Shown here: piece by piece, positions 136-61,780 of the stretch
How the letters are laid out: each line of letters begins with the position of its first letter
Numbering within the stretch: position 1 is the first letter of the stretch
IMG/VR virus record: IMGVR_UViG_3300023179_000011
Location: 135,846-199,845 of that record
Strand: one strand, 5' to 3'
Length of the DNA stretch: 64,000 nucleotides
Origin: a virus
The notes under the pieces: model-generated
Databases searched by the model: none
The model's input: the letters and a program-made list of their open reading frames with translations, nothing else
Told to the model about the DNA's origin: nothing
Translations under genes and position numbers: made by a program

Positions 136-3100
136 TTACGTATTATCTTCCACAATATGAACCGGGGTGTCCACCTCTATTTCGCCGCGGCGGTATGCCT
201 GTACAGCGTCCTGCTTGCTACGAAACACACGTGGTTTGGCTTTTTTACTAATCCGGCTAGACGCTAAGTATAACCCGGTTTGGTAGTCTTTGTTAGGAAC
301 GTAGTGCGCGCGAAACGTCGATGTCGCGAACAAATTCTTGCTCGGCAGCATTTTTTCAACGGCTTCTTTCGCGGCGTCTTCTGTGCTTGGAACGTGATAC
401 TGCATCGCATCACCGTCAAAGTCGGCGCCAAACCCTTTGGTGATTACAGGGTTCACTTCCATGACTTTGTTTTTAGTTAACTTGGGATAGAAAGCCATCA
501 TACCGTAGCGATGAAGTACCGGGGCGCGGTTGATAACAATCGGCCGCGACGACATCTGCTGATTTAACTCAGCAAACGCTTCTTTGTTTTTATCTTCAAC
601 GGCCTGCATAGCTTGCATGCGCGGAAGGCCGCGGCGAACAAGCCCCCGAACAACGAACGGCTTGTAAATATCCCACGCTTTCTCTTCTGGCAGCGCAACT
701 TCATCCATATCAAGGTCGGGATTTGGTGTAATGACGGCGCGACCGACAAGGTCTACCGTCGAACTGAGCAGCTTGCGCTGAACAGTGCCGTATTTTGGCG
801 AGTTACCAAACACGTGGCGTAGAAAACCTTTGACGTTGCGCTCGACGTTTTTAGGCTGCTGCGGCTCACCCAATCCGGTAACAGCCTTCATCGAGTCATA
901 CATGCTCAGCCGTTCGTCGCCGTAGTCGGCTAGCGCGCCAGAAGCTTCTTTCAGCGTATCGTTAGCGTCGAGCAATTCTTTGTACAGATAATTTGCGTCG
1001 GCCACGAGCGGTAACTTTTTGCTGCCCATCGTGCTCACGGGGCGGAAGAGCGGCGGCAGAACAGGGACTTTACTAATCATCCAGTCCTGCGGATGCACAC
1101 CAGTTGTTTCGGCGCTCTTTAAAAAGCCGAGCCTGCGCACGGCGGCGTCGCGAAGCGTCTTGCGGCCGGATTTGATATCTAACCGCGCCTGCTCGATAGC
1201 TTTCGGTAGATTAATGCGCTCTAGGGCCGCCTTAATCGCGCCCGGACCTGTCTTGTCGCCCAGCTGCTCGCGGCCGGCCAGCACGCCGCGAAACTGTTTT
1301 TCTGTCATGCCGAGCACGCGGCGAATAGGATCTTCCATCACCGGGTTCGGCATCGGTTCATGCAGCGTGATCTTGCTCCACCGATTACCGCCGTGGCCGC
1401 CAGTTAGCATCTCGTCAAACAAGCCGCCGGCGATAGGTTTGAGCCGCCCCTTCCAGTCGACGGTCTCGGAGCTTTTGAGTTCCCGCGGGCCGGCGAGTTC
1501 GTCCACGTCTTTGTCGGTCATAGCCATCAGGTTCGAGCGCGTCCCCTTGCGAACAACGTTGATACCAGACGCTTTGAGTTGATTAACAAACTTTTCGTAA
1601 ACGTGCGGGACTTTGGGCAGCGGCGGCGTATACCCGGCCATGAACTGCGACCAGTACTCGGGGTTCGCTTGCCCGCGCACCATTTTGGCGTCTCGAATAA
1701 CTTTGCCGGCGCCGTGAGAAAGTAACGCACCCAGATCAAGCATGCCGACGCGCTTGGCGCCTTCGCTACCGCCCTTGGCCGGCGTTCCTTCGGCCGTGTA
1801 AGCGCCCATCGCGCGCCCCTGCGCTTTGGATTCGCTTGTATGGTGCAGCTTCATAAAAAAACGTGTGCCCGTCAGTACGCCGCCAATCTTTCGACCGGTT
1901 TCAGGGTCGATTACGTCCTCGGTGTCTGACAGCCCGTGTTTAGCGAGTTCTTTCTGCGCAAACTCGATCAGGTCGTTTTTGTTATCAAAGTCCTTGAGTT
2001 TGTACGGCGAGCCAGTCTGCGCGGCTACTTTGCCCAGTGCGGCCTCAATGACCTGTGCGGGATTAATGCGGCTGATAAGGCCAAGCGGCGACACGAGTAC
2101 TTCAAACGCGTTACCGTCGCGATCCTTGGGCATCTGATCGTCGGGCACTATTTCGGCCACGACGCCCTTGTCACCAAAACGCCCGGTGAGTTTATCGCCG
2201 ACGTCCATGGGCGCTTGATTTTTTACAACAACGCTTACGCCTTTTTTTGTGTGCATGACGTCGGTCACAACACCCGGCGCGTGGTGTTCCCACGTAATCG
2301 TCTCGTTGGTGAAGTTGCCGGCACGCCCCCGGTGCACTTTACCGTACACCGTGTCCTTTTTCTTGGCGACAAGCACAAGCGGATCGCCAAATTTAACTTC
2401 AGTGCCTTTTTTAATCGCGCCGTTGTCGTCGAAGTTATCAAGAAACTTTTTATCGTATTCAGTTGGAAACAAACTCACGAACGCCTTCTTGCCAACGTGA
2501 GTATTGTCGTCCCACTCGGCTTCGTGCTGATACATGTGCTCAGACGTCAGCCGCTTGGAGGCAGATTCAGAGATAACAACAGCGTCTTCGTAGTTCTTGC
2601 CGCGAAACGGCAAATACGCCGTCCGCAAGTTCAGGCCAAGAGCCGCGCTACCGTTCTGATCAGTAAAGTTGGAGCGCGCCAGCAGTTGGCCGGGCTCAAC
2701 AACATCACCCGGCTTCACGAGCGGCGTCTGATGTAAAAAAGTCTTTCGGTTGTACGGCATCTCGTTATACAAATCGATTGTCTTTTTGTTGCCGTCTTTG
2801 TCGCGCAGCACAATACCGTCTGGCGTCACATCGACGACTTGCGCGCGTTCGGTCGCGCGAGTCGCGCCCAACTTCTCGCCCATCTCGTCTTCGTGCGAAA
2901 CTTTGTCGTCATCGGCTTTCGCAGACTGCAGCAGCGGCGCCTCGGCGTTTACGAGTGGCAACGCCTGCGTAAACATTCGGCTACCCATGATCACGCGATG
3001 ACCTTTGATCATCGATTTGATGGGCACCATGTTGGTCAGCGCAGAGAACGTGCTATCCATGTTCGGCAAACCAAATTGCGCTTCTTTTCGCGGCACATAC

Positions 3101-4539
3101 TTCAACTTGCCGTTTACGAGCGCCGCAACGACAGGCAAACCATTGTCTTCTTCGCCGGGGAACACGAGCGGCGTGTCGGCCAGTTCCTGCGGCGTCTTGT
3201 AGATCTTGTCGCCGGTTTTCATATCAATAACCGGCGTATAAATTTTGCCGTCGGAGCCCTTCATGGCGCCGCGGGCAAAACGCATATCAACGCCCACCTT
3301 GCCAGACTCAGGTGTGCGCAGGTAGTCAATAAACCCAAGATGACTTGGTTGCACGGAACGTGATTCAGCCGGTACAGCATCAAGCGACCCGATGCCGCCT
3401 TCGCCCATACGAGTGACACGAGTCTGGTGATCAAAAATTTCGGCTGGGTTGATCTCTTCAAGACTCGATCCAAGGCCGCTGCCAATAAGCGCAGCCGAAA
3501 TTGCTTTATCAAACACACCCGACGGAATGTGATCAATTGATTTCTTGGCGGTGGCTTTCCAAAGCAATTTGTTAAGCGATTGCCGATCTTTCGTGAACCG
3601 CTCGGCAATCAAATCTTCTGGCCCGACGACCGACTGATAAACCATGTTGTCTCGGTCGTCGCTTTCTGTTTCGCGCCGATTGACGGCAATGAGTTTCTTT
3701 GTGATCGCCAAAATTGTTTCGGGCGTCATGTTTTTGTATTCAGCGCCCAGTGTTCGACGCGTAACTTCTGGATCTAATTCCGTCTTGGCAAATTCAGCTG
3801 CAATAGCTTGCGCTTTCGCAATAGCGTCTGCGCCGGCAACCGGTTTGTTCACAAGTCGGGCGTAGATCTTGTCCATCGTGCCGGCGTCGCCCTTCTCCAT
3901 GTTGACGGCGGTAATCTCGTTGCCCCACGCTTTGCGAATGTCTTGATCAGACACGCCCATGGATTTGAGCAGCGGCATAAGCGGTATTTGTGCCTGCCCG
4001 ATGCTAATCTTGAACACGCCGGTTTTGGGGTCGAGGAAGTAACGATGTGATCGGCCTTTACCGGGTAATGTGTTTACGTGCGCTTCAATTTCGCCGTTGT
4101 CTTTTTCGCGCGTAAACACGCCGGGACGCAAACGCATCTGATGGGCAAGTGTGTACTCGACGCCGCCGTTGACGAATGTGCCCGAGTCAGTGAGATACGG
4201 CACGTGAGCAATCGTGGCACGGCGCTGACCAACCGGCTGCCCGGTTTTGTTATCAGTAAGCGTCCACGTACCCTGCAACCGGCGGGCAAGCGTCCCTCTA
4301 GAAAGGACAGCTTTCTTCTGATCTGACCGTGTAAAACGTTCAGGCCCTGAGTACCCAACGTCTTGAAGCTGCAACGTATACAGATCGTTTTGCAGCGGCT
4401 TGAGATTTTGCGCGCTATTCAGCGCCTGATTGAAAATGTTTTCTCGCATTAAACCAACGTCGCCAAACGTGCGCATTGTCGGCGCAACTGGCGCTGGCAT
4501 GGGCGTCGGCTTTAATTCGGGCAGTTCGGGGGCTGGCAT
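136..4539 (-). CDS. rpoBC: Multisubunit DNA-directed RNA polymerase: beta fused to the N-terminal (catalytic) half of beta'
   Basis: beta motifs GTFVNGGVE, TPESGKVG, GSRMFTQALPL, YEDAVVISES, GDKLTGRFGDKGVV, FMKLHH, GAKRVGMLD; then beta' motifs GGLFDE, PVLPPLFRP, VGRAVITP, NRAPVLHR and the catalytic GADFDGD. Confidence 0.95.
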   Translation of the reverse strand: MPAPELPELKPTPMPAPVAPTMRTFGDVGLMRENIFNQALNSAQNLKPLQNDLYTLQLQDVGYSGPERFTRSDQKKAVLSRGTLARRLQGTWTLTDNKTGQPVGQRRATIAHVPYLTDSGTFVNGGVEYTLAHQMRLRPGVFTREKDNGEIEAHVNTLPGKGRSHRYFLDPKTGVFKISIGQAQIPLMPLLKSMGVSDQDIRKAWGNEITAVNMEKGDAGTMDKIYARLVNKPVAGADAIAKAQAIAAEFAKTELDPEVTRRTLGAEYKNMTPETILAITKKLIAVNRRETESDDRDNMVYQSVVGPEDLIAERFTKDRQSLNKLLWKATAKKSIDHIPSGVFDKAISAALIGSGLGSSLEEINPAEIFDHQTRVTRMGEGGIGSLDAVPAESRSVQPSHLGFIDYLRTPESGKVGVDMRFARGAMKGSDGKIYTPVIDMKTGDKIYKTPQELADTPLVFPGEEDNGLPVVAALVNGKLKYVPRKEAQFGLPNMDSTFSALTNMVPIKSMIKGHRVIMGSRMFTQALPLVNAEAPLLQSAKADDDKVSHEDEMGEKLGATRATERAQVVDVTPDGIVLRDKDGNKKTIDLYNEMPYNRKTFLHQTPLVKPGDVVEPGQLLARSNFTDQNGSAALGLNLRTAYLPFRGKNYEDAVVISESASKRLTSEHMYQHEAEWDDNTHVGKKAFVSLFPTEYDKKFLDNFDDNGAIKKGTEVKFGDPLVLVAKKKDTVYGKVHRGRAGNFTNETITWEHHAPGVVTDVMHTKKGVSVVVKNQAPMDVGDKLTGRFGDKGVVAEIVPDDQMPKDRDGNAFEVLVSPLGLISRINPAQVIEAALGKVAAQTGSPYKLKDFDNKNDLIEFAQKELAKHGLSDTEDVIDPETGRKIGGVLTGTRFFMKLHHTSESKAQGRAMGAYTAEGTPAKGGSEGAKRVGMLDLGALLSHGAGKVIRDAKMVRGQANPEYWSQFMAGYTPPLPKVPHVYEKFVNQLKASGINVVRKGTRSNLMAMTDKDVDELAGPRELKSSETVDWKGRLKPIAGGLFDEMLTGGHGGNRWSKITLHEPMPNPVMEDPIRRVLGMTEKQFRGVLAGREQLGDKTGPGAIKAALERINLPKAIEQARLDIKSGRKTLRDAAVRRLGFLKSAETTGVHPQDWMISKVPVLPPLFRPVSTMGSKKLPLVADANYLYKELLDANDTLKEASGALADYGDERLSMYDSMKAVTGLGEPQQPKNVERNVKGFLRHVFGNSPKYGTVQRKLLSSTVDLVGRAVITPNPDLDMDEVALPEEKAWDIYKPFVVRGLVRRGLPRMQAMQAVEDKNKEAFAELNQQMSSRPIVINRAPVLHRYGMMAFYPKLTKNKVMEVNPVITKGFGADFDGDAMQYHVPSTEDAAKEAVEKMLPSKNLFATSTFRAHYVPNKDYQTGLYLASSRISKKAKPRVFRSKQDAVQAYRRGEIEVDTPVHIVEDNT

Positions 4540-13974: not shown

Positions 13975-14046
13975 CTGCCTGAGTAGGACTCGAACCTACA
14001 ACCCCAGCATTAACAGTGCCGTGCACTACCATTGTGCTATCAGGCA
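13975..14046 (-). tRNA. trnN: tRNA-Asn(GTT)
   Basis: Cloverleaf: TGCCTGA/TCAGGCA acceptor stem, CTGTTAA loop, TTCGAGT T-loop; CCA not encoded. Confidence 0.95.
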
Positions 14047-40083: not shown

Positions 40084-41226
40084 TCAGCCAATCGACCGGG
40101 TCTTGAGCACCAGCTTTTCCTGCGCGGGCCATAACAGCATCTGCTGCATGGTATCCACGCTGGTGACATCCTTAAGCAGCTTGAGAGCTACCTGCGGATT
40201 CACCTGTATTACCTCGGAAGCTGGCTTCTCCTCTTTGCACGCCCGAGATAAATCTTCATACCGTGTGTACGTATCCCACACCCAATCCTCGCCGTTCTCG
40301 GGGTTGTGCTTTTTCAGCTCCCCGGTCACGTAATGATTGGTCTGCACAAGGCCGTGTTTCCTTGTGCGGATGTAGGTATGTTCCCCGGTATGTGTTACGA
40401 CCGCGTGTTCTTTACTCTGCGTACCGACCACGTGCGCGAAGAATGGCACCATGGTTTGCTGCGTACGCAGATGAAAAACAAGCTTTTCGTAACTTGGCAT
40501 TTTGTCGCAGACCGCTCGGACCCGCTGTAACGCCGGCCACGCTTGGAGCAGATCTTTGACAGATGCCGCGGTGTTTGTCACGTATGCAAACATCGCAGAC
40601 AACGATCCCCACCAGCCCGTGTCTGTGCCGTCCTCGTCTTCTTCGTCGACAAGAGACTTCACAATTGGGGCTTGATTGACAACCAACGCCCACTGGGCAG
40701 ACATCGCGCTGACGACGCCCACCATGCCCGCAACGCCCACCGAAGTGTAGCTTTTGCGGCCACGATGAAAGCGAAGCAGCTTGGTGTGCTTGCCAGTAGA
40801 GGGAGGCGTCACCCAGTCCATGTTGCGCACAATGACTGGGGTGGAATTCACATCGAAGCTTGCAGAACTACATCCACAACCGTACATCTCGGCAAGAGAC
40901 GTAAAGTCGTAAATTAAGTTCCCCAGCAGAAGCTTGCCGACAGGGACTTCAGCGTGCCGCGCAATGCACCGAAGTTCCTGCGGATACTCAAGGTCTGTAC
41001 CCGTCAGGATCCAGCCCCCAAGTCGTCCACCGCCGCTTGTCACACTCTTTACGACACTTTTCATGGTGTCAGAAAGGTGCGGCAAGATTTCCTCGTCGAC
41101 ATGGGTTTCCACGTCTTCGAGGATGGACTGGATCGCGTCGCCATTTTGACGAGCGAACCCGGCCCAGCGTTCGTCCGGTGGTTCCTCCAGATCGATGTCA
41201 TGAATCTTCCCGGTGAAAAGTTTCAT
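40084..41226 (-). CDS. Ntn-hydrolase of the acid ceramidase/NAAA type
   Basis: IDLEEPPDERW (alpha part), CSSA...VRNMDW (nucleophile Cys), QTNH. Confidence 0.8.
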   Translation of the reverse strand: MKLFTGKIHDIDLEEPPDERWAGFARQNGDAIQSILEDVETHVDEEILPHLSDTMKSVVKSVTSGGGRLGGWILTGTDLEYPQELRCIARHAEVPVGKLLLGNLIYDFTSLAEMYGCGCSSASFDVNSTPVIVRNMDWVTPPSTGKHTKLLRFHRGRKSYTSVGVAGMVGVVSAMSAQWALVVNQAPIVKSLVDEEDEDGTDTGWWGSLSAMFAYVTNTAASVKDLLQAWPALQRVRAVCDKMPSYEKLVFHLRTQQTMVPFFAHVVGTQSKEHAVVTHTGEHTYIRTRKHGLVQTNHYVTGELKKHNPENGEDWVWDTYTRYEDLSRACKEEKPASEVIQVNPQVALKLLKDVTSVDTMQQMLLWPAQEKLVLKTRSIG

Positions 41227-42550: not shown

Positions 42551-42778
42551 CTAGACAGGCTCGAACTCGGCGTCGACAACCGTGTAGCTGTCGAAGTCGT
42601 CGTTCAGGATCGCCGCTTCCGCGGGGATGCACTCGCAGACGCCCAGTGCAAGGCTGCAGTGCAGGCAGCGCTCAGTGTCGACGTCCGGCGGCGCAATCGC
42701 CGCAGCCAACACAAACAGCATGTCCCGGTAGTCGTCCACATTGACCTTCACCGCCGGGTTGTTGCGCGGACCAGCCAT
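42551..42778 (-). CDS. Small Cys-containing hypothetical protein
   Basis: AAGGAGG RBS before MAGPRNN; CLHC...CEC. Confidence 0.65.
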   Translation of the reverse strand: MAGPRNNPAVKVNVDDYRDMLFVLAAAIAPPDVDTERCLHCSLALGVCECIPAEAAILNDDFDSYTVVDAEFEPV

Positions 42779-42964
42779 AATCTCGTCCTCCTTGAAGAGA
42801 AATAAAACAACCGCCGTCTCGTGGCGGCACAACGCTAATGGTCTCTCGCCATTAGACGGCCCCACCTATCACCGGGCAGGGGGTACGGCTGAGGATTGCT
42901 TAGCTCCCACGTAAAACCAGCCCACCTAGTGACTGGCGCGGCAGGAGCTATAGGTCCTCAATAG

Positions 42965-42992
42965 ATATGCCGTGTTTTTGGCAGATATTTAG
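42965..42992 (-). promoter_or_regulatory. Putative phage promoter, copy 6
   Basis: CTAAATA-TCTGCCAAAAACACGGC-ATAT. Confidence 0.75.
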
Positions 42993-42998
42993 CTAGGA

Positions 42999-43044
42999 GC
43001 AGATAGCTAAAAAAAAGCCGGCAGGGGAGCGCACCCCTGCCGAC
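42999..43044 (-). terminator. Intrinsic terminator plus junction motif
   Basis: GGCAGGGG/CCCCTGCC hairpin, T8 run, GCAGATAGCTAAA. Confidence 0.75.
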
Positions 43045-43104
43045 TCTTGGCGAATTAACGAGTCGCCACCCGTGCCGAAGCGACCAACCGGTCGCCAAAA
43101 GAAT

Positions 43105-43456
43105 CGTTAGCACAAGAAACGCTCGTGAGGACAGGTATCACTACCCGCCTACGCTCTGCAGCCGTTTGTTAGGTCACAGACAGGTTCGCGTTGTACGGAC
43201 GCAAACCTTTGTTATTTAAAACTAGTCTGGCAGGTCTTTCACCTGCATCACCCGCTCCCCTAGACGTAATGTTTAGTGTAGTCGAGTGGAATCACTTGGA
43301 ATAGCCAACGAGGCCCGGGCGGGGCAGCCCGCTATTCCGCCATTTACCCTAACGGTTCCTGCAAAACATTTCACGAAAACTGCTCGCCCAGCCCTCTGCA
43401 TGCACCTAGAGATAGGTTCATACACATGCTTCTCACGAGCGTTTCTTGTGCCAACG
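43105..43456 (-). ncRNA. Candidate large structured ncRNA (~350 nt)
   Basis: 25-bp terminal helix (20 bp perfect, plus one G-U on the minus strand); several internal hairpins; no credible ORF. Confidence 0.6.
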
Positions 43457-43480
43457 CGGGTATTGTAACACCCGAATGAG

Positions 43481-43768
43481 CTACGTCAACGTGTCGATAT
43501 AGTGCTGCGTCGAGCACACATAACGCGTGACGATTTCTTCGGCATCACACCCGGGGCAGCGCTGGTCTAACTCTTGGACCAGCGTGCCCATCGACCGGCG
43601 GATATTTAACAGCGCGCGCCGAAGTTGTTTTACTTCGATCTCCGCATCTGTTTTATATCTCGTCCCGCTCTTGGTGTTTACTGTCGGCGCCAATGCTGTC
43701 TTCTCCTTGTTTACTACTTCCGTCCACCACTGGTTGTTCCAGTTCACTGCCTTCTGACTCGCTGGCAT
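43481..43768 (-). CDS. Hypothetical protein
   Basis: 95-aa ORF; overlaps the upstream ORF, start uncertain. Confidence 0.5.
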   Translation of the reverse strand: MPASQKAVNWNNQWWTEVVNKEKTALAPTVNTKSGTRYKTDAEIEVKQLRRALLNIRRSMGTLVQELDQRCPGCDAEEIVTRYVCSTQHYIDTLT

Positions 43769-43949
43769 CTTTATACGCTATCAGCAGCGCTTCCTTGAGT
43801 GTGTCAATCAGGGTGTTTGCGCACGTGTCGATCACTTTACGCTGATACTCCAGCTTGTCAATCGTCTCGCGCATCTCGTCTCTGGTTTTTACCAGCGTCT
43901 CGGCCAGCTTGAGCAGCGATTGCGCCAACGCTATCGACAGATTGTCCAC
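43653..43949 (-). CDS. Coiled-coil hypothetical protein
   Basis: AAGGAG RBS, GTG start. Confidence 0.55.
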   Translation of the reverse strand: MDNLSIALAQSLLKLAETLVKTRDEMRETIDKLEYQRKVIDTCANTLIDTLKEALLIAYKDASESEGSELEQPVVDGSSKQGEDSIGADSKHQERDEI

Positions 43950-45176: not shown

Positions 45177-45431
45177 TGGATGTACCTTTCAAAAAAAAGA
45201 AAAACCGGGCGGGCCCTTTACGTTCCGGCCCTATAACCCAAGACGAGCTGCAGCTCTTCTTGGAAACCCTCCACGTCGAAATCCACGCCGCGAGATTCCC
45301 GCAGCGGTCTTCGATTGGTAAGGGATACCCGGTTAGACAACGGTGCGCTCAGGTATGCTAGCTGTCGCTGAATAGAAAGCTTGGGCCGTGGGCATACCAT
45401 TTTGGCCTAGTTTTTTCTACTCCCGTTGTGA

Positions 45432-45785
45432 TGGAGGCGGCGGGAATCGAACCCGCGTCCTGAGATGTTTCAGTTCAGACGTCTACGTGCGTATCTGGTG
45501 AATTTAGTCTCACCTGAGTGTCACCCTACCAGCGCGGTAACAGTACAGGCCAGCTCTGAACAAATTTAAACTAGCAGGACAGAGCAGTGAGCTAGGCGAG
45601 TCGGATTTGGCGACCGCTAGACAACCCTTCCGACTGGGGCTGGTTCGCGGGCTGCTGATTTTACTCAGGCAGCGATGGCAAGAGTGTTGCCGACTAACAT
45701 TTGATCGAGTTTTAACGTGGCCACCCGATCAACCACGACACGCAGTCTTGAACCTCCGTCATCCAGTCGATACCAGTACGCCCCC
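45432..45785 (-). ncRNA. ssrA: tmRNA; tag (A)GNTLAIAA
   Basis: GGGGGCG/CGCCTCC-A acceptor stem with G3-U70; TTCGATT T-loop; TAGTC upstream of the resume codon; tag ORF at 45665-45691. Confidence 0.93.
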
Positions 45786-61737: not shown

Positions 61738-61780
61738 AAAAAAGACCCGCCGAGTGAGCATCGTTGAGAGGCCCGGCGGG
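61738..61780 (-). terminator. Probable intrinsic terminator
   Basis: CCCGCCG/CGGCGGG stem, then a T-run on the minus strand. Confidence 0.5.

Follow-up and report, generated by a model that had tools for sequence, protein, structure and literature searches.

We describe a minus-strand locus that, with a probability of roughly three in four, is best explained as a stand-alone gene for a new, highly structured non-coding RNA of ~448 nt, carried by an uncultured ~200-kb phage. The window analysed here is a stretch of 64,000 nucleotides that forms the terminal 64 kb of a 199.8-kb IMG/VR virus record, and it is close to certain that the locus within it is a real, new structured RNA gene. The predicted transcript would span 43456-43009, from a promoter-like site to an intrinsic terminator, and would comprise a closing helix (P1), an ornate inner domain and a conserved 3' tail (Table 1). 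The original prediction of a novel structured RNA on the minus strand holds as to kind and strand, whereas its estimate of ~350 nt was too short because it left out the conserved 3' tail. The ~300-nt ornate part that it described does belong to the RNA, yet it is optional, as the same gene occurs in related phages without this domain.

The RNA gene is placed within a run of small accessory cassettes. A tmRNA gene and four tRNA genes were located 2-5 kb upstream on the same strand (Rfam and tRNA scans), and the fifth tRNA gene of the window is far off, at 13975. The RNA gene is single-copy in its own genome (199.8 kb) and no target duplication was seen.

Table 1. Features of the RNA gene and its immediate surroundings, in window coordinates
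Feature	Position	Strand	Basis or details
sigma70-like promoter (predicted)	43462..43489	-	-35 TTGACG 43489-43484, 16-nt spacer, TG-extended -10 TACAAT 43467-43462
P1 5' strand (25-bp closing helix)	43432..43456	-	complementarity, consensus fold, pair counts
ornate inner domain, 302 nt	43130..43431	-	consensus fold, pair counts, covariance model R1
P1 3' strand (closing helix)	43105..43129	-	complementarity and pair counts
conserved 3' tail (hairpin A, linker, hairpin B)	43049..43104	-	homologue alignment
intrinsic terminator	43009..43048	-	15-pair G+C-rich stem 43048-43013, then eight U to 43009
95-aa ORF upstream of the RNA gene	43481..43768	-	adjoins the RNA gene in long and short alleles

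Fold, covariation and transcription signals

The two arms of P1 are 25 nt long and 96% complementary, and their sole mismatch forms a G-U pair on the minus strand, in agreement with the minus-specific 25-bp closing helix proposed from the sequence of the window. The 352-nt minus strand folds with a predicted energy of -164.6 kcal/mol, as compared with -113.1 +/- 6.0 kcal/mol for 100 dinucleotide shuffles, none of which was as good (z -8.6), whereas the plus strand of the same 352 nt is weaker (z -5.8). The inner helices listed in the original prediction are all in place in the predicted fold: GGAATAGC/GCTATTCC pairs at 43298-43305 / 43331-43338, and GCAGGT-GAAAG-ACCTGC, GGTTTGCGT/ACGCGAACC and ACCTA/TAGGT are found in both the minimum-energy fold and the consensus fold. 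The inner domain comprises 15 helices surrounding a long-range helix stack (43369-43348 with 43173-43151). Its invariant junction strands include a 30-nt run, GUGAAAUGUUUUGCAGGAACCGUUAGGGUA, and its conserved loops are UCUC, GAAAG, GUGA and CCGUACA.

An analysis of homologues, of the kind suggested together with the original prediction, detected strong helix-wise covariation. Across 14 homologues (13 distinct), a 118-pair consensus is 99.0% paired and compensatory double changes occur at 27 of the 118 pairs. Sliding the 3' partners by 1-3 columns left 2-7 double-change pairs and 32-45% pairing, and column shuffles yielded 18.9 +/- 1.9 double-change pairs, with none of 500 reaching 27; an earlier set of nine sequences gave the same picture. 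The compensatory changes among these 14 homologues therefore indicate a structure beyond chance. They are spread over several helices: P1 has double changes at 9 of its 25 pairs (99.7% of cells paired, the outer 10 bp being nearly invariant), H15 has six, with up to four pair types per position beneath the invariant loop CCGUACA, H4 has four, H8 three and H10 two, and H13 and H14 also carry them.

The long-range core helices show zero variation among the 14 homologues and are thus predicted only. Much of the covariation tracks one deep split (9 versus 5 sequences), so that independent events are fewer than the cell counts suggest. A search for extra tertiary pairs was swamped by the phylogenetic signal of this split, and candidate pairs such as columns 118-172 and the L4 ACGAG / CUCGU complementarity are ideas only.

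G-U pairs account for 192 of the 1652 pair cells (12%), so that pairing would drop to 87.4% on the opposite strand. The RNA is thereby assigned to the minus strand, and selection for an inverted repeat in the DNA is ruled out. A conserved reading frame is excluded by indels of 1, 2 and 4 nt among the homologues. The RNA core is also more similar in nucleotide sequence than the adjacent ORF is (88.5% versus 65.8% identity in L043; 82.2% versus 69.9% in L009).

The promoter-like site preceding P1 scores 10/12 plus the TG extension in a scan with the sigma70 consensus. Its -10 element is separated from the first base of P1 by 5 nt and its -35 hexamer, TTGACG, overlaps the last codons of the upstream 95-aa ORF. 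The -35/16-nt/-10 layout is found at a constant distance from P1 in 16 of 16 loci, and its retention despite three unrelated upstream contexts speaks for a genuine start at P1. Promoter activity of 43462-43489 is predicted from the sequence, as are the expression, ends and stability of the RNA.

A small hairpin is possible at 43457-43480, between the -35 element and P1, and at the same place in L004-L009 and L103-L106. Its stems differ by haplotype yet keep pairing (CGGGT/ACCCG, TGGAT/ATCCA, GGGA/TCCC or ACGG/CCGT, with one U-G in L007) and the -10 hexamer sits in its loop or 3' arm. This hairpin could reflect a transcript start further upstream, or chance among four or five haplotypes.

The further hairpins and the terminator expected downstream of P1 were found (Table 1). 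Hairpin A (43096-43079) is invariant and is joined by the linker UCGGCACGGG to hairpin B (43068-43048), which occurs as five different stems, all of them pairing, with the loop core CUCGUUAA kept. The tail is common to long and short alleles (with and without the inner domain, respectively), and the top of the terminator stem shows a compensatory GC/AU change among homologues. A terminator scan of the minus strand from 45400 to 43456 returned zero terminator-like sites, the first strong one being the RNA gene's own, so that transcription of the upstream operon could also continue into the RNA gene. Directly after the RNA gene, CTAAATA-N17-ATAT can be read at 42992-42965, a phage-type promoter motif that marks the start of the next cassette.

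Distribution of the RNA and alleles without the inner domain

Homologues were sought through the neighbouring 204-aa protein, through the adjacent 95-aa ORF and through invariant words in viral, metagenome and genome collections, and the RNA was recovered at candidate loci using nhmmer and R1, a covariance model built on the inner 300 nt. It was detected in 13 further loci, which gives the 14 homologues when the window is included. All RNA-bearing loci are records or fragments of ~194-207-kb phages. One copy lies on a 5-kb contig binned into a bacterial metagenome-assembled genome (MAG), and no copy was detected among 100 genomes related to this MAG. The GenBank phage collection holds no DNA similar to the RNA locus, and phages encoding the 204-aa neighbour at 38-51% identity (L010-L030) gave no nhmmer or covariance-model match. 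Two invariant words were found only in eight IMG/VR records of the phage clade, besides chance matches, and a 19-nt word only in records of the clade within the metagenome and genome collections, apart from one match (L091) that we ascribe to chance. We likewise rejected as chance most 15-mer matches, several 16-mer matches and five of the six new matches to a 17-mer from the tail. The RNA family thus appears confined to one phage clade, and this narrow distribution, in uncultured freshwater phages, is a weakness of the case.

NCBI names the source of one relative of the 95-aa ORF (P0012) as a Betaproteobacteria MAG, and the best cultured match of the 204-aa neighbour is Limnohabitans phage DC31 (41% identity). 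These are weak hints that the host may be a freshwater betaproteobacterium.

Three related loci (L101, L107/L108 and L115) carry the promoter-like site, P1, the tail, the terminator and the 95-aa ORF without the inner domain. In these short alleles the outer arms of P1 are kept and capped by a loop of ~13-16 nt, forming a hairpin of 16-22 bp. The arms of the L107/L108 allele, which is listed in 29 protein-index blocks and was read in 24 contigs, resemble those of L009, and R1 had zero matches anywhere in the 157-kb record of L115. An apparent loop similarity that would have suggested a common origin of the short alleles dissolved on alignment, and a shared origin of the two short hairpin types is not evident. 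The short alleles form two separately supported clades, each with long-allele sisters, in a tree built from the 95-aa protein. Core and tail haplotypes also occur in different combinations: L008 matches the window at 100% identity in its tail and at 81% in its core. Together, these observations make recombination of co-circulating phages or repeated loss likely. L008 and L009 also show homology to the window that begins exactly at the ATG of the 95-aa ORF.

Since alleles without the inner domain exist, at least some of these phages can do without it, and since P1 and the tail are kept in such alleles, they have a role of their own. The ornate domain is an optional cargo upon a conserved small-RNA scaffold (P1, tail and terminator), and this scaffold is present in every related phage that has the locus.

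Known RNA families and rival explanations

The RNA locus was compared with the 4227 models of Rfam 15 at gathering scores and, for the 901-nt stretch 42700-43600, with lax filters and E values up to 10. No known family was recovered, as the original prediction had supposed, and the only matches were four at chance level (E 1.9-3.3); as a positive control, the tmRNA of the phage itself is recovered with this library at 149.5 bits. The ROOL model gave no match to 42700-43600 at the gathering score or at E up to 10, and neither did that of GOLLD; RNase P models were absent from the matches at E up to 10, as were those of group I and group II introns and of small self-cleaving ribozymes; and the tmRNA model matched at 45429-45785 only, with nothing at the RNA locus. 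The RNA is therefore a new family, uncatalogued by Rfam 15, among a known kind of ornate phage RNAs. An IMG/VR paper on candidate RNAs reports 8495 unnamed candidates (PMC10690425), and the RNA may be one of them.

The closest known examples of this kind are ROOL and GOLLD, non-coding RNAs of phages and prophages that are large, stand-alone and built of many helices, that often lie beside tRNA genes and that show strong covariation and invariant junctions, with no known protein partner or function (PMC12286853). Their cryo-EM structures are RNA-only cages, homo-oligomers held together by kissing loops and A-minor contacts, and many GOLLD RNAs exceed 800 nt (PMC12286853). The RNA described here is of the same functional kind, as it is phage-borne, large, multi-helix, stand-alone and covarying, with invariant junctions and with tRNA and tmRNA genes nearby. 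It differs in that neither model matches it, in being at most about half as long (352 nt, or 448 nt once the tail is counted), in being closed by a 25-bp helix, in its organization as optional cargo on a small-RNA scaffold and in its restriction to one phage clade. The sole hint of a comparable self-assembly is the palindrome GUAC in the invariant loop CCGUACA, which might permit contacts between molecules. The phi29 pRNA offers a parallel on this point, being phage-encoded, with ends in a long helix and loops that mediate intermolecular contacts; it has no homology to the RNA here and belongs to a phage of different type and size class, and by itself a palindrome of 4 nt within a loop of 7 nt carries little weight.

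Other known RNAs resemble the gene in outline. Y RNAs, including bacterial YrlA, have paired 5' and 3' ends, a conserved stem base and a lineage-variable module on top, whereas the RNA here is three to four times longer. A Y RNA was rejected, as the phage has no TROVE gene and no YrlA model match was obtained, and a retron msr-msd RNA was rejected because the 199.8-kb genome gave no RVT_1 match and the neighbours lack such a domain; in the absence of a reverse transcriptase and of a Ro/TROVE gene, both readings were dropped. An intron was also discarded, since the gene has a promoter-like site and a terminator of its own and the short alleles do not look like simple removal of the domain atop P1.

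The main rival explanation, which we regard as somewhat unlikely, is that the RNA arises by processing from the 3' end of the transcript of the upstream operon (45400-43481), P1 being an RNase III-type processing stem. Cleavage would free the ornate domain, and the stub left on the mRNA would stabilise it; in the short-allele phages the same hairpin would serve as a plain processing or stabilising site. A helix of at least 20 bp is the usual RNase III substrate, and P1 resembles rRNA processing stems and T7 RNase III sites, in which a long near-perfect helix flanks a functional RNA or separates units. The persistence of P1 as a hairpin of 16-22 bp in alleles without cargo, the lack of any terminator-like site on the minus strand between 45400 and 43456, so that the RNA's own is the first strong one, and the hairpin with possible covariation that overlaps the -10 element and fits a start further upstream all agree with such processing. 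Processing stems nonetheless differ from P1 in that the promoter-like site here puts the start at its first base, and T7 RNase III sites usually contain internal loops. Moreover, three unrelated upstream sequences hold the promoter layout at the same spacing from P1, and strong conservation extends into the tail past P1, where hairpin B covaries; a trailer that is thrown away would have no need of this. Processing is compatible with an internal promoter and with a stand-alone RNA gene as the main reading.

The presence/absence polymorphism located exactly at the top of P1, the short alleles in two supported clades with long-allele sisters and the shuffled core and tail haplotypes would suit a mobile or selfish RNA (an intron-like or ribozyme-based element) that had entered the loop of an already existing phage small-RNA hairpin. 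We consider this very unlikely given that no group I, group II or small self-cleaving ribozyme model matches at E up to 10, that removing the domain at the top of P1 leaves no loop, that the short-allele loops have no clear counterpart at the domain ends, that word scans of IMG/VR and of the metagenome and genome collections place the domain at one locus only, in single copy in the genome, and that no endonuclease, reverse transcriptase or recombinase lies nearby. Inverted repeats of 25 bp flanking a 302-bp segment, a size typical of invertible promoter switches and of MITEs, could also denote a feature of the DNA itself (an invertible segment, a MITE with terminal inverted repeats or a cruciform site). 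This reading is already contradicted and is scarcely credible: the G-U in the arms is kept in 14 of 14 long alleles, one-sided changes from A-U to G-U would be mismatches in DNA, 12% of pair cells are G-U and the internal helices covary, the locus is single-copy with neither target duplication nor a recombinase or transposase nearby, and loci without the segment retain both arms, unlike the empty site of a transposon. Extreme divergence from a known class (RNase P RNA, tmRNA, 6S, Y RNA, ROOL or GOLLD) would be in keeping with a length of ~350 nt, paired ends and the proximity of tRNA and tmRNA genes, and an RNA that has diverged so far can escape Rfam models. Such an origin is nevertheless highly improbable, because 4227 models run with lax filters at E up to 10 over 901 nt returned chance-level matches only, the same library finds the phage tmRNA at 149 bits and the phage lacks the Ro/TROVE gene expected for a Y RNA.

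Possible mode of action and neighbouring genes

Retention of the promoter layout, which is unlike the phage-type motif of the next cassette, makes transcription by the host sigma70 RNA polymerase, probably early in infection, the simplest reading for the stand-alone RNA gene. Transcription would start at or beside the first base of P1, which would clamp the 302-nt multi-helix domain in the place of its own loop and be followed by the two hairpins and the terminator. A 5' end buried in a long helix and a 3' terminator hairpin are the usual marks of a stable RNA, and the fully paired 5' end and terminator hairpin predicted here would probably make the transcript long-lived.

Covarying stems below invariant loops and junctions are typical of RNAs with a fixed fold that bind a partner, assemble or catalyse. 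By analogy, the ornate domain may adopt a fixed tertiary fold and act in trans as a folded RNA, either binding a host or phage factor or self-assembling as ROOL and GOLLD do. Its location in a tRNA/tmRNA region among small accessory cassettes, together with the alleles that lack the cargo, points to an accessory, trans-acting RNA, and its function would be accessory rather than core. We put forward a trans-acting, ROOL/GOLLD-like mode of action tentatively, as a plausible reading. That the 300-nt domain is a self-contained RNA machine (an RNA-only assembly like ROOL and GOLLD, or a ribozyme), carried as swappable cargo in a small-RNA hairpin, is a bolder and unlikely proposal; if true, it would define a modular 'cargo-in-hairpin' architecture of RNA genes, with alleles exchanged by recombination, that has not been described before.

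Large, elaborately folded bacterial or phage RNAs without known function are rare, and each past case (RNase P, tmRNA, OLE, ROOL and GOLLD) led to new biochemistry. The RNA reported here has clear covariation and is short enough for probing and cryo-EM, and related phages that have the same gene minus the ornate domain are natural controls, offering a ready-made comparison with and without it. It would also provide a second, unrelated example of ornate RNAs linked to tRNA regions of phages, an as yet unexplained association.

The 95-aa ORF is conserved and has no Pfam or PHROG match. AlphaFold models its product as a helical protein (pLDDT 74.6), for which Foldseek returned no match at E up to 0.001. 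We considered this protein as an RNA-binding partner, and the family and fold searches support the idea neither way. No recombinase, transposase, nuclease or reverse transcriptase domain was detected in the neighbours of the RNA gene (Pfam and PHROG), and the 199.8-kb genome encodes no reverse transcriptase (RVT_1), Ro/TROVE or RtcB gene. A 98-aa ORF (43653-43949, minus strand) has a good ribosome site, AAGGAG, and shares 116 nt, in another frame, with the beginning of the 95-aa ORF.

Several other features of the window were recorded. The tmRNA gene (45429-45785, minus strand) is full-length, scoring 149.5 bits with Rfam, and its middle part is markedly different among relatives; ARAGORN did not report a tmRNA there. 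The abiF RNA motif (RF03085), usually tied to abortive-infection genes and found here in a phage, matches 61745-61780 on the minus strand at 44.6 bits (gathering score 37). A 380-aa protein (40084-41226, minus strand) shows weak matches to the acyl-CoA:6-APA acyltransferase and NAAA beta-subunit families, which is unusual for a phage. Finally, a 1467-aa protein (136-4539, minus strand) combines Rpb2 (RNA polymerase beta) and Rpb1 (beta-prime) domains in a single chain, and its nearest cultured relatives, at 31-33% identity, are found in Salmonella phage Arash and in Vibrio phages D69, D181 and D148.
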